Of a stretch of 64,000 nt of DNA, positions 23,701 to 32,796 are shown in pieces. Numbering within the stretch: position 1 is the stretch's first letter; the number at the start of each line of letters is the position of its first letter. The notes under the pieces were generated by a model. The model searched no databases, was not told the origin of the DNA, and saw only the letters and a list, made by a program, of their open reading frames with translations. This DNA comes from a virus (taxonomy: Duplodnaviria > Caudoviricetes). The position numbers and the translations under genes were made by a program. Location of the stretch: the IMG/VR virus record IMGVR_UViG_3300014208_000023, positions 32,001 to 96,000 of that record. One strand, written 5' to 3'.

Positions 23701-24336
23701 ACCACGACATCATCGCCCTGCTTGAGCAATGAGATCACGCGGCCACATGCGGTGTTGGATTCGATCAACACCGCACCATCAGGAAGGTCTGCGCGACTCT
23801 GGCTGATAATGGAATAGATCGCCTTGATCTCTCCACCAACCGCGACACCGGCATGATCCCGCTCGACCTTGACTTCACTCATTGGGAGTTTCCTTTTGCT
23901 TGGGCGGATACAGAAGCCAGGACGAAGTTACCGGTCCAGGCTCTCTACGAATTAGTCCTGCCCGAAGACAGCGACTAACAACATCATAACCAGCCGATTG
24001 TCCAGCGCCAGCCTCTTTTGCAGCTTCGCGAATAATCTTGCCGGGATTCTCAGTAACAAACTGAATGACCTTTTTCATCTTAGGTCCGATCATATTCCCT
24101 CGTGAGCTAACTCTTTATCCCCGGCTAGACTATCAATCTAGCCGGGGATGGTCCGCTCCGTAACAGGCAACCGAATTGGCAGCCTAAAGAGAATGGTTAC
24201 TGACATAGACAGGCTTCTATGGCTGGAGTCCAAAATAGCCTCCGCCTATTCCATATCTGCTAACAAGGATACTACCCGGCCCATATGCTACGGATGAGTC
24301 CGTTAGCGTTACCCGTGGTTCGCGTTACCTGTTAGC

Positions 24337-24364
24337 ATTGTAACCACACTCTTTAGAATGTCAA
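24337..24364 (-). promoter_or_regulatory. Sigma70-type promoter
   Basis: TTGACA-16 nt-TACAAT. Confidence 0.75.
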
Positions 24365-24484
24365 TAGACTATCCCTCCCGATTATCCCATAATCCGTTGC
24401 AACGGCTTGGGGTCGGGAGGGGATCTCCACTACACAATTACTAACTTAGGAATGAGAGTAGCTACTTCTCATAACCATTACAAC

Positions 24485-24632
24485 GAACGGCCCTCATCAG
24501 TAACCGCTTCACGGTTATACGTATTCACCATAGCGCCTGGCCTTTGATACTTGATCAGTTCCTAGTTAGGAAGCCAGTCTGTTGGAATGCCACCTACGTT
24601 CAGTCGTAGGCGTGAATACGTTACGGCCTCTC
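24485..24632 (-). ncRNA. Type II hammerhead-ribozyme-like element (core variant)
   Basis: Stem III 10 bp perfect, GUA triplet, stem I TAACCG/CGGTTA, CTGATGA core, stem II GGCC/GGCC; GTAA instead of GAAA and one extra G. Confidence 0.6.
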
Positions 24633-24728
24633 ACGTGTCTTTGAAGCTTCCCCCATACCCAGACGTTCCGGGGGAAGCATTAGCACCCATAGGGAAGCTT
24701 ACGCTTCCGGTAGTCTAGGGCTGTTCTC

Positions 24729-26487
24729 CTAGGCTTTCCAGCGACTCTCTTTCAGAGGAGAGCCATTGAAGGATCGCCACTCACGAAAGTATCGTCCCTT
24801 GGAATCCCTTTCGTTGTAGTTCGGGCGGACGATTACCGCCTTTCCCTTTGCACGCAGACTCTCTCCGAGAGAGATTGCGTGTTCCAGGTTGGTGAATGTC
24901 GCATCCACGAAACGATCCCCGTATGTGGTAAGATCGCCAACGCACTTACAGGTGATTACAGAGATAGTAGCCTTAGCCATTGAGCCTTGGTCTCCTGGTA
25001 GCTTCTTTTTTTGAACCATCCCCATAGAGACAGGGGCCTAAGCTCCTGTTTACGTCGCTTGGTTGCCTTGATCCGATTGTGATAGATCGCCATAGCCGTG
25101 TGACCACTAAAGAGCCACTTGATCGGAGAGATCATTCCTTGCGTTTGATACCTACCGTACTGCTTCATTCCTTGCCCGCATTGGCAATGATGTTATGGCA
25201 GATTGCTCGGTAGTGCGCAACCACTTTCGGATCGTTCGTGACCTTTCCGGTGCCGGGAATGAACTTCCACTGGATGAACTTCCATGCCAGCTTGTACCTA
25301 CGATCCTGTTCCGGTGTGAGAAACGAGAATAGCTTTCTCGCTTCAACTTCTCTGTCAGAGAGACTCATGTTACGAGAGCTTTCTTGGTGATAGAGTCGGC
25401 CACTTTCTTGAGAGCGAGCACTTCGGCTTCCGCCTTCTCAGCTCTAGCCGTGAGCCTACGAGTAGCAGAATCCGATCCATCGATGAATGCTTCGTTGATC
25501 ACGCGGAACGTTTCGTTGATCTCGTCCTGATCGCGAAGACTCAGATAGTCCTCGATGGTCATGCACTCGTTGACGCAAGCCACATGGTTGAGCTTGTTCA
25601 GGAAGTACCAGGATGCGTAGGAAGTCGTGTTCTGGCAAACCCAGGAACCGGCACCCTCATTCCACGATCCATCCTCTTCTTCGTAACAACCCTCTCCGAT
25701 GTAGCCGAGCGGAAGCGTGAACTTCCGCATGTAGTAACCATCGAAGTTGGCCTTATTACAGATAGCGACGTAGGTGCGAGAAGGTGAAGAGACGATCTTC
25801 TTTTCAGACATTACTGCCTCCTAATTCGGGCCTGTAACAACTTCTGTGTAGCACATGGGTTTAGATTTTACGAGCTATCAGAGGAGACTCGAACCCCTCC
25901 AGCCATGGACTTCACATTATATGCTACAAACCCGAATTAGAAGGGGGAAGGTAGTTAGTCTTCCCCGATCCTTTCTTACTGATAGAGCCAGGCATTGACT
26001 GCCCGGCGAACCTCCGTGCATGCAGCCCGAACATCGAAGGCATTGATCGTGTGCTCCATCACAAGAGGAGGAGGAATCTTGCCCTCCTTCTTGAGAGACA
26101 CCACAACCTCACCCACATACGGATTCTTCGGAATCATTCGACTCTCCTACTTGAACCAGCGTCTAGCTCTTGCTCGGAATGCACGAATCGCTCGTTTCAG
26201 GCAAAGAGAACAATGCCTGGCGTCTCCTTCCTTCATGCCTTGAACTTCTCCATGAGAGCCTTGGCATCCGGGTAGCCGAAAGGTTTCAGAGCCTCCTCGG
26301 CTTGTTCCAGAGCTTTCGGATCGTTCTCGCGTAGAAACGCATTGATCTTCGGGTCGAGAACCATCATCAGTAGCGTTCGAGCCGCTGACTTGCCCTTGCA
26401 CTCTTTCGGGGGAATAAGCTTCTCAATAGCAGCTTGCCTTTCGGGACCGGGAGGAGGCAACATGATGCCATGTCCAGTGCCAGCCAT
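24729..26487 (-). other. Hypothetical CDS (24729-25025, 24956-25168, 25165-25368, 25365-25811, 26233-26487)
   Basis: Contiguous ORFs with strong AGGAGG-type RBS. Confidence 0.7.
25817..25944 (-). promoter_or_regulatory. Long-stem leader element with internal T-loop hairpin; sequesters the RBS of 25365-25811
   Basis: Arms 25817-25830 / 25931-25944, inner stem 25846-55 / 25919-28, GAGGGG-TTCGAGT-CTCCTC. Confidence 0.65.
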
Positions 26488-27010: not shown

Positions 27011-27033
27011 TGTGATTACCTCGTTTGAGTTAT

Positions 27034-27140
27034 CCTTCTAACTCTATTCAATAGACATGCGCCAGATAAGCTCCGGCCTAGTTCCTATCTGAATCTATTG
27101 AATAGAGCTAGAAGGGGGAGACTTGGTTAGAGTCTCCCCT
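27034..27140 (-). repeat. Intergenic long-stem element plus GGGGAG hairpin
   Basis: Arms 27034-27055 / 27094-27115; homologous to 27999-28118. Confidence 0.8.
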
Positions 27141-27146
27141 CATCTA

Positions 27147-27977: not shown

Positions 27978-27998
27978 TGTGTCCTCGTTTGGAGTTAT

Positions 27999-28118
27999 CC
28001 CTCTAACTCGGTTCAATTAGACTCGGGCGCTCAACCAAGGGACAACGCCCGGTATATTGCTAAGCCACCACCTAATTGAACCGAGTTAGAAGGGGGAGTC
28101 TGTGTTAGAAACTCCCCT
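27999..28118 (-). repeat. Intergenic long-stem element plus GGGGAG hairpin
   Basis: Perfect 18-bp inverted repeat CTAACTCGGTTCAATTAG / CTAATTGAACCGAGTTAG. Confidence 0.85.
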
Positions 28119-28129
28119 CCTAATTGCCG

Positions 28130-29749: not shown

Positions 29750-29811
29750 TCGTTTTCTCCCTAAAAAGAGATTATCTACGATAGAGTCTGTAACGTTCCT
29801 CCTACCTTGAG

Positions 29812-29840
29812 ACTGTAACTCATACGAGCTAGAGTGTCAA
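29812..29840 (-). promoter_or_regulatory. Sigma70-type promoter embedded in an inverted repeat
   Basis: TTGACA-17 nt-TACAGT; flanked by arms 29798-29814 / 29833-29849. Confidence 0.7.
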
Positions 29841-29880
29841 GGTAGAAGGGGAGGATTGCGCCTCCCCAACTACCGATCGG

Positions 29881-31431: not shown

Positions 31432-31606
31432 TGATTCTCCCTTAGAAACAACTAGAGGCAGTCTAACGCGCTACACATTCCTAGACGTTCGGCCTTCAGT
31501 GACCCTTACTAGATCCAGCCGAGGCTAGATGCTTCAGGAGTATGCACGCCCTAGTTATCCGGTAGTGTTTTTCTCACATACGTTTTCATGTATGTGGCGC
31601 ATTAGA

Positions 31607-31731
31607 ATCCCTCTAATCAAGTCCCAAGAACACTTGCCATTGTGATCCTGCTGCTAGTTAGACTAGAGGAGGTTTCCAGACGAGCGGCATGGAACTTGAT
31701 TAGAGGGATGAGAGGGATCGGCCCCTCATCC
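31607..31731 (-). repeat. Intergenic long-stem element plus hairpin
   Basis: Arms 31607-31624 / 31691-31709, hairpin 31704-31731. Confidence 0.7.
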
Positions 31732-32466
31732 GTCTATGTCAGAAGTACGGCTTAGGCTTCTTACCTTTGCCGAGGTTGATGTTCTGGATGAGAAGCTCCT
31801 TAGCCGCCTCATCCAACTGAGAGGTGTCGAGAGGAAACTCCCCCTTGTACGGGGGAGAATGCTCCTCGGTCTCGTGCTCCTCATCGGGATCGAACCTACG
31901 CGACTTGCCCACTTCTACTTCGCCTTTCTACGTAAGAGTACGAACGTTCCCAGGAGTAGCAGACCAACACATCCAAACGGTTGCGGCGGCTTGCTTGACC
32001 TTGGAACAATCAGGGATTCGGTTATTGTGGAGAACCGATCGAGCCATTGCGGCGATCAGTAGGTCTCCAATCGTGGACGAGCACATCATGCTAGCATCCA
32101 CGATAGCAGTTTGTCAACCAAGAAGTCACTCTTGGACCTACAGCGCGGATCGTACTGAGGCTTGTAAACCACAACCAATCCGCACGGGTCTTCCAAGCAA
32201 CCCTCGGGAATCCACGCCCACGACCAGCAGCGGCGAATGTCAGGTGTGGTTGAACATTCGCCGGCTTCGACTAGGGAAGCCAATTCGTCCTCGGAAGGAA
32301 GACGACGTTGGGGGAATGGGGGAAACCCATACCCTCACGCTGGAAGGGGTCGGCGGCAACAAGAGCCGCTTTCAGATCCTTGACCTTGACCATACCAAGC
32401 TCTGCCTTGTGCTGAGCGTGGAACGGGCAAGTGTGCTGTCTGCAATCGTGATCCATATGTGTGGAT

Positions 32467-32612
32467 CCTCCTCCGTCTCAACTAGATACGACCGGGAGCC
32501 TTTCTAGAATGCTCCTAATACTGGGGGAAAGTCTGGCAGTTGGGTTAGTGTCCAGTAAGTCCCCTGTATGTAGTTGAGACGGAGAGGGATGAGGGATTGG
32601 TTAGATCCCTCC
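32467..32612 (-). repeat. Intergenic long-stem element covering the RBS, plus hairpin
   Basis: Arms 32467-32489 / 32566-32588. Confidence 0.7.
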
Positions 32613-32796
32613 TCACCTACTCACGGCTTCGGAATCTCCAATGACTTGATCCTCTCACCAGAGGTAGTCATGGAATGAGAAGTGTCAACCTTGCCGTTCT
32701 CGATTACCCTAGACACCCAAAGATCCGCATCCGGGTAATAAGGACAGTGAGAAACAACGACGTAGACCGTGGAGTGTTCCCGAAAGAACTTCCCGA

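Follow-up and report, generated by a model that had tools for sequence, protein, structure and literature searches.

A conserved structured RNA with a putative hammerhead-type junction and a variant core (U13) in a jumbo phage

Genomic setting of the element

The DNA analysed here (the window, 64,000 nucleotides (nt)) comprises bases 32001-96000 of the 428,320-base-pair (bp) virus record IMGVR_UViG_3300014208_000023, which has direct terminal repeats, and the public sequencing runs containing it are groundwater metagenomes, none of those listed being on record as RNA. A 148-nt element on the minus strand of the window (24632-24485) had been proposed, from its letters alone, as a type II hammerhead ribozyme candidate with a variant core, and its minus-strand sequence matches that sequence-only reading letter for letter. 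Comparison with a close relative establishes the element as a genuine, structured RNA that is under selection on the minus strand. Its helices meet in what, judged by its letters, is a hammerhead-type junction with a novel core variant (U13).

The element sits inside a gene-free island of 635 nt, and all the genes that flank the island are on the minus strand. Upstream lies an open reading frame (ORF) of 83 amino acids (aa) on the minus strand, with its UAG stop codon at 24731-24729; downstream lies a near-consensus promoter. The earlier placement of the element, 3' of the 83-aa gene and upstream of this promoter, is correct. Beyond what had been described, the element belongs to a larger conserved block of 244 nt (24728-24485), of which it is the 3' part and for which an alternative fold is predicted. 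A tRNA scan found no tRNA, and blastn against phage GenBank gave no match.

24364-24337, minus strand: sigma-70-type promoter, TTGACA-16-TACAAT, downstream of the element

Structure of the element

Read 5' to 3' on the minus strand, the element consists of GAGA, GGCC, GUA, a 10-nt stem III strand, an 83-nt insert, the partner 10-nt strand, A, stem I, CUGAUGA, G, GGCC and GUUC. The minimum-energy fold of the isolated 148 nt is a three-way junction (-50.0 kcal/mol, z -2.75), with the type II topology, the stems and the GUA cleavage triplet that had been claimed. The two departures from the consensus core, A13 changed to U and one extra G after A9, are likewise confirmed, and both are kept in L020, an 11-kb Logan contig with DNA sequence taken from the cluster of an 87%-identical homologue. 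The parts of the element are as follows.

24625-24632, minus strand: GAGA and GGCC, the stem II 5' strand (GGCC, 24628-24625) with a 3-bp extension (24632-24630); unchanged in L020
24622-24624, minus strand: G12-U13-A14, the GAA strand with A13 changed to U; the same in L020 and in the X15 contig
24612-24621, minus strand: stem III 5' strand, 10 pairs, first letter A15.1; from fold and covariation
24529-24611, minus strand: structured 83-nt insert in the stem III loop; from fold and covariation
24610-24593, minus strand: hairpin A of the insert; two double compensations and one C-to-U change (U.G) in L020
24577-24537, minus strand: branched hairpin B of the insert, in which a CUAACUA stretch forms a UAACUA loop; one U.G change
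24519-24528, minus strand: stem III 3' strand, last letter U16.1; from fold and covariation
24518, minus strand: A17, kept in L020; on the hammerhead model the predicted scissile bond is 24518/24517 (GUA then U)
24501-24517, minus strand: stem I hairpin, 6 bp and a U.G pair, with a GAA loop; two adjacent double compensations in L020
24494-24500, minus strand: CUGAUGA (C3-A9); U24496C at N7 is the sole change in relatives
24493, minus strand: extra G between A9 and stem II, kept in L020; pairs with C in the alternative fold
24485-24492, minus strand: stem II 3' strand GGCC (24492-24489) and the tail GUUC; from sequence and fold

By inspection, a pseudoknot is also possible between UGAA of loop I (24511-24508) and UUCG (24487-24484), with three Watson-Crick pairs and one G.U pair (chance about 0.18). 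One of its pairs becomes G.U in L020, and it competes with the stem II extension.

Conservation and covariation

The identity between the window and L020 changes sharply along the locus. It is 83% in the 83-aa gene, 100% in the 96 nt that separate the element from the stop codon, 89% in the element itself (16 substitutions in 148 positions) and 45%, with insertions and deletions, in the approximately 85 nt that follow, so that homology collapses directly 3' of 24485. None of the 40 model pairs is broken in L020. Ten of the 16 substitutions form five double compensations, three are C-to-U changes that leave G.U pairs, and three fall on unpaired letters. Two of the double compensations lie in stem I (A24515U/U24503A, which turns A-U into U-A, and C24514G/G24504C, which turns C-G into G-C), one lies in stem III (G24619A/C24521U, G-C to A-U, found in L020, X6 and X15) and two lie in hairpin A of the insert. 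Near relatives in four public runs also carry substitutions of compensatory appearance. When the 3' partners were slid by 1-3 columns as a control, no compensation was left, and for the partial data of run X6, which hold three compensations, eight transitions placed at random never gave three or more in 20,000 trials. Four one-sided C-to-U changes, one of them in an upstream hairpin in run X6, give U.G pairs in the minus sense only, which identifies the minus strand as that of the functional RNA. With no broken pair, five compensations and a kept core, the RNA is real, belongs to the minus strand and evolves under selection, and a chance origin is unlikely; covariation establishes stems I and III as well as the hairpins of the insert.

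The same evidence bears on whether the conservation might instead be owed to the plus strand, through a 43-aa ORF (24587-24718) or a site acting at the DNA level, an explanation that we regard as very improbable. L020 retains the whole ORF, which differs there by two amino acids, and a contig of 226 nt (X15), whose run (organism A, a coded name) was guessed to be RNA and which matches an L020-like variant over window positions 24510-24718, ends at 24510 joined to GGG and a SMART/ISPCR adapter. On a template-switch reading this adapter is oriented as the 5' end of a plus-sense RNA, but a random primer could account for the junction too, in which case it is uninformative on ends. The ORF is without a usable ribosome-binding site, since GGA abuts its ATG, and it leaves part of the conserved block uncovered; the substitutions form compensatory pairs instead of being synonymous, and the wobble pairs noted above exist in the minus sense alone. 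The antisense ORF probably just reflects the conservation of the RNA. Parts of the stretch occur in organism A runs of three studies.

Conservation of the core in relatives holds in L020 at every position except N7. Among the 12 junction letters the single change is U24496C, at the one free position of the hammerhead core, giving CUGACGA in L020 and X6, while the two lineages do not differ in G12-U13-A14, A15.1-U16.1, A17 or the extra G. The flanking gene has diverged to 83% identity, yet both lineages retain U13 and the extra G, so that selection acts on the U13 form. The unpaired letters of the insert changed in L020 at two places only (24586 and 24536).

Further copies were sought more widely. 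In the relatives found through an AAA ATPase gene (L002-L006), synteny stops before the region and the element was not found; the remote homologues of the 83-aa gene (at most 51% identity; L007-L010 and L012-L016) are followed by short gaps that hold no element. Exact-pattern scans of viral and genome collections and a protein-alignment scan of viral contigs each gave 0 matches. A homologue search with the downstream 72-aa gene recovered that gene alone, and the read-through translation of 24531-24364, used as a query for an ORF on a relative's contig, had no match. A covariance model built from the two copies found no further copy in the relatives' records or in any fetched locus.

The junction compared with known hammerheads

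Three helices surround one junction, with stem II open and stems I and III closed by loops, as in type II hammerheads (RF02276). CUGAUGA (24500-24494) supplies C3-A9 between stems I and II, A24621-U24519 forms the A15.1-U16.1 pair, and the nucleotide before the predicted cut, A24518, is a non-G letter as expected at position 17; the pair and the A are kept in L020. The intergenic, sense-strand location in a phage operon is a further likeness, and the possible pseudoknot between loop I and the 3' tail may be another. In total, 12 of the 13 consensus core positions are matched; the defining GAA is replaced by GUA (24624-24622) in the window, L020 and X15. In addition, unpaired G24493 separates A9 from the GGCC of stem II, which as a defining feature of the type directly adjoins A9 and G12. 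The element also differs from type II members in its conserved, branched 83-nt insert in stem III, in being a single copy and not an array, in its embedding in a larger conserved RNA with a competing fold, and in lacking an RF02276 match at E ≤ 10.

A search with hammerhead type II models had been suggested; no hammerhead model of Rfam had a match at E ≤ 10 to L020, the window or, at the locus, the genome. A scan of the window at gathering scores and scans of the region and L020 at E ≤ 10 gave no ribozyme family, and an Rfam scan of the relatives' loci gave nothing. The 83-nt insert may account for part of this failure. Because GAA and the adjacency of stem II are lacking and the curated model has no match, we do not file the element as a type II member, and describe it as a putative hammerhead-type junction with a novel core variant in a conserved structured RNA. 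An alternative register, with the U as an insertion, a C-G pair as 15.1-16.1 and U as position 17, was rejected because it needs more deviations.

Given three real helices, it is very improbable that the junction strands would by chance read CUGANGA (with one extra nucleotide), G.A, a non-G letter and an A-U closing pair; base frequencies give a rough figure of about 1e-5 per junction, or lower. The junction letters therefore make hammerhead ancestry or hammerhead function likely.

We also searched the 428-kb genome with a type II descriptor of our own, which requires CUGANGA, all three stems and a letter other than G at position 17, tolerates one mismatch in GAA and 0-1 extra nt after A9 and scores matches by their summed stem lengths. 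The element is the top match in the genome (score 21), and this score was reached in 7 of 300 block-shuffled genomes and, on the real genome, by 7 of 400 decoy core motifs with the same information content. A run of 1500 decoy sets gave 162 matches scoring at least 19, none of which falls inside the structured early region. The other descriptor matches, at genome positions 423217-423394, 271136-271248 and 269685-269846, have no hammerhead fold and were judged to be chance, and neither blastn nor the two-copy covariance model found another copy in this genome.

Natural variation in hammerhead cores offers a background for the two deviations. The excerpts of Perreault et al. 2011 (PMC3088659) describe slow natural core variants in phage intergenic regions, namely A6C (phage Bcep176), an inserted U13a and U15.1-A16.1, as well as insertions near C3 in the hammerheads of haloviruses HF1/HF2; all of these variants still cleave. 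According to the same excerpts, the core can accommodate an inserted nucleotide that is able to point outwards, some core variants that are slow in vitro have been proposed to be conditionally active, and phage intergenic regions are known to hold hammerheads with single-nucleotide core insertions and type II hammerheads in which loop I forms a pseudoknot with the 3' tail (PMC3088659). The excerpted parts of that paper list no natural variant with a substitution at position 13 (PMC3088659). Most type II members have such a pseudoknot, of at least 4 bp. The element resembles these cleaving variants in its single deviations from the consensus and its phage intergenic location, and differs from them in combining two deviations. 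In our literature search, neither data on a hammerhead with A13U nor any report of hammerheads in jumbo phages came up. An extra nucleotide after A9 is reportedly tolerated in the hammerhead of chrysanthemum chlorotic mottle viroid, as described by De la Pena and Flores in 2001.

The 244-nt block and its alternative fold

When the whole 244-nt block is folded, a competing structure, termed fold B, is predicted, in which the end of the element pairs with sequence close to the stop codon. The upstream part of the block contributes the following features.

24633-24728, minus strand: upstream part of the block, starting right after UAG; 100% identical in L020 over 96 nt
24708-24693 and 24678-24646, minus strand: two hairpins of the upstream part, from fold prediction
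24717-24726, minus strand: 5' strand of the fold B helix, pairing with 24494-24485 (A9, the extra G, the stem II 3' strand and the tail)
24687-24691, minus strand: UAUGG, predicted in fold B to pair with CCGUA (24626-24622) and so to mask G12-U13-A14

The long-range helix of fold B comprises 9 pairs with an ensemble probability of about 0.97 (RNAalifold and minimum-energy folding of the 244-nt block), and C24485U in L020 gives a G.U pair within it; the probability of the UAUGG/CCGUA helix is only 0.28. Fold B has a computed energy of -89.9 kcal/mol against -88.1 kcal/mol for the hammerhead fold and is preferred in both lineages. Masking the first 10-16 nt after the stop codon raises the probability of stem II from 0.03 to 0.99, again in both lineages. 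Both the preference for fold B and the release by masking are predictions of the energy model, and because the upstream sequence is invariant, covariation cannot test fold B. The conservation of the 96-nt upstream part is far above what structure alone would require.

These predictions allow the hammerhead likeness to be viewed as a coincidence, the RNA being an unrelated multi-branched domain closed by the long-range helix of fold B. We consider this unlikely, though it deserves real weight. Fold B is the predicted minimum of the 244-nt block in both lineages and spans the block almost from end to end, the neighbouring intergenic regions all have long closing stems with structured cargo, and there is neither an Rfam match nor another hammerhead in the genome. 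Against the coincidence stand the very low chance estimated for the junction letters, the lack of any comparable decoy match in the early region, and the helices specific to fold B, which have no covariation support and include the improbable UAUGG/CCGUA pairing.

Possible self-cleavage

We tentatively read the element as a self-cleaving variant of the type II hammerhead that would cut after A24518, slowly or under the control of an alternative fold, and rate this a little short of even. A structured RNA that does not cleave, whatever its origin, comes out at about the same level overall. On the self-cleaving reading, the 148 nt would be the 3' domain of a 244-nt non-coding minus-strand RNA that ends the early operon. 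The predicted cut after A24518 would give the upstream mRNA a 3' end that carries a 2',3'-cyclic phosphate and lies in the heavily structured stem III domain, and would detach read-through RNA before the next promoter region. Cleavage would probably be slow or conditional because the core is non-canonical (U13 and the extra G after A9).

Several points weigh against self-cleavage. In the excerpts of Perreault et al. 2011, A13 belongs to the core consensus required of every accepted hammerhead, and core mutations mostly cause a drastic loss of activity (PMC3088659). Of the stems in the sequence-only reading, I and III stand by covariation; stem II does not, its GGCC/GGCC being invariant in L020 and thus without covariation, and it has a predicted competitor that takes up about 97% of the ensemble of the 244-nt block and leaves stem II a probability of 0.03. 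Outside the core only 2 of 56 unpaired letters changed; they are as conserved as the core, and core conservation is therefore not specific evidence. The comparison covers only two lineages. Searches of the whole 428-kb genome with RF02276, RF00008 and RF00163 gave nothing at the locus, their three weak matches lying elsewhere and being chance. Neither the descriptor nor the Rfam models found a second hammerhead in the genome, and phage hammerheads often occur clustered. Finally, the X15 contig from the possible RNA run crosses the predicted cut site, although we weighted it neither way; the same neutral weight was given to its end at 24510 and to a read-length contig (X3) that ends at 24518.

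Alternatively, the RNA may descend from a hammerhead that lost cleavage through A13U but retained its three-way junction for a different function, for instance as a stabiliser or insulator of the 3' end of the early operon or as a protein-binding platform using the conserved insert and its UAACUA loop. U13 is expected to be strongly deleterious, judging from the excerpts of PMC3088659. Conservation of unpaired letters extends over the whole RNA and not the core alone, and the 83-nt insert and the 96 nt upstream are constrained at least as much as the core. Moreover, U13 pairs with an A in the predicted fold B, and GC hairpins with CUAAC-type loops recur between the early genes of this phage. 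This explanation needs a new function to account for the ongoing compensatory evolution of stems I and III, and the sole junction change falls on N7, just where hammerhead constraint would lead one to expect it; we hold it to be unlikely, yet well worth considering.

Fold B may also be part of a self-cleaving design, and the predicted pairing of U13 in it offers a possible reason for that letter. The naked RNA is predicted to be mostly in fold B, with A9, stem II and G12-A14 paired with upstream sequence, and the hammerhead fold is predicted to be set free when a terminating ribosome, or some other factor, covers the 10-16 nt that directly follow the stop codon. The element might accordingly be a switchable hammerhead, whose U13 core is masked by UAUGG and whose A9 and stem II are masked by the stop-proximal strand, and which cuts only when that strand is occupied, thereby coupling 3'-end formation to translation. 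This specific version is rather improbable in our estimation.

Were the element to cleave, position 13 would be added to the short list of core positions that nature can change, and standard models and survey filters that allow no core mutation would be missing functional phage ribozymes. A true two-state design would provide a directly testable ribozyme that is gated by translation and masked by the sequence after the stop codon. If the element does not cleave, a hammerhead-shaped RNA is being kept by selection for another purpose, which would be informative for annotation.

Neighbouring elements and genes

A set of intergenic elements of shared design lies nearby on the minus strand (25812-25975, 27026-27146, 27990-28125, 29790-29860, 31600-31715 and 32460-32615). 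Each has a perfect stem, about 13-25 bp long, that encloses a structured insert of variable make-up, and several open with a GC hairpin, often with a CUAAC-type loop. The 5' arm of the stem, CCUUCUA or a similar sequence, pairs with the next gene's ribosome-binding site (UAGGAGG or UAGAAGG), and these elements look like sites of processing or translation gating, for example for RNase III. The cargo of 25812-25975 (minus strand) includes a stretch, GGUUCGAGUC, that resembles a tRNA T-arm. Like these elements, the 244-nt block lies directly after a stop codon, engages the sequence just after that codon in pairing and has a closing helix that joins the ends of a structured cargo. Unlike the block, the elements at 25812-25975, 27026-27146 and 27990-28125 pair CCUUCUA with UAGGAGG over at least 20 bp; the long-stem elements are without a hammerhead-like junction, whereas the block is without a following gene.

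The promoter downstream of the element is 94% identical between the window and L020 while its flanks diverge. Together with the first approximately 55 nt of its leader it is kept in L020 (window 24094-24365; L020 3600-3931), and the rest of the leader, which is about 240 nt long, has large insertions and deletions there.

The early region (window 13000-35000) has a GC content of 50-58%, compared with 39.7% genome-wide, and its genes, mostly small ORFs without a family match, are all on the minus strand. An AAA ATPase is encoded 3.5 kb upstream of the element. The closest IMG/VR relatives of its module are much smaller phages, among them L002 (record G001), a 72.5-kb record with terminal repeats, and this three-gene ATPase module is therefore common to a jumbo phage and to phages of ordinary size.
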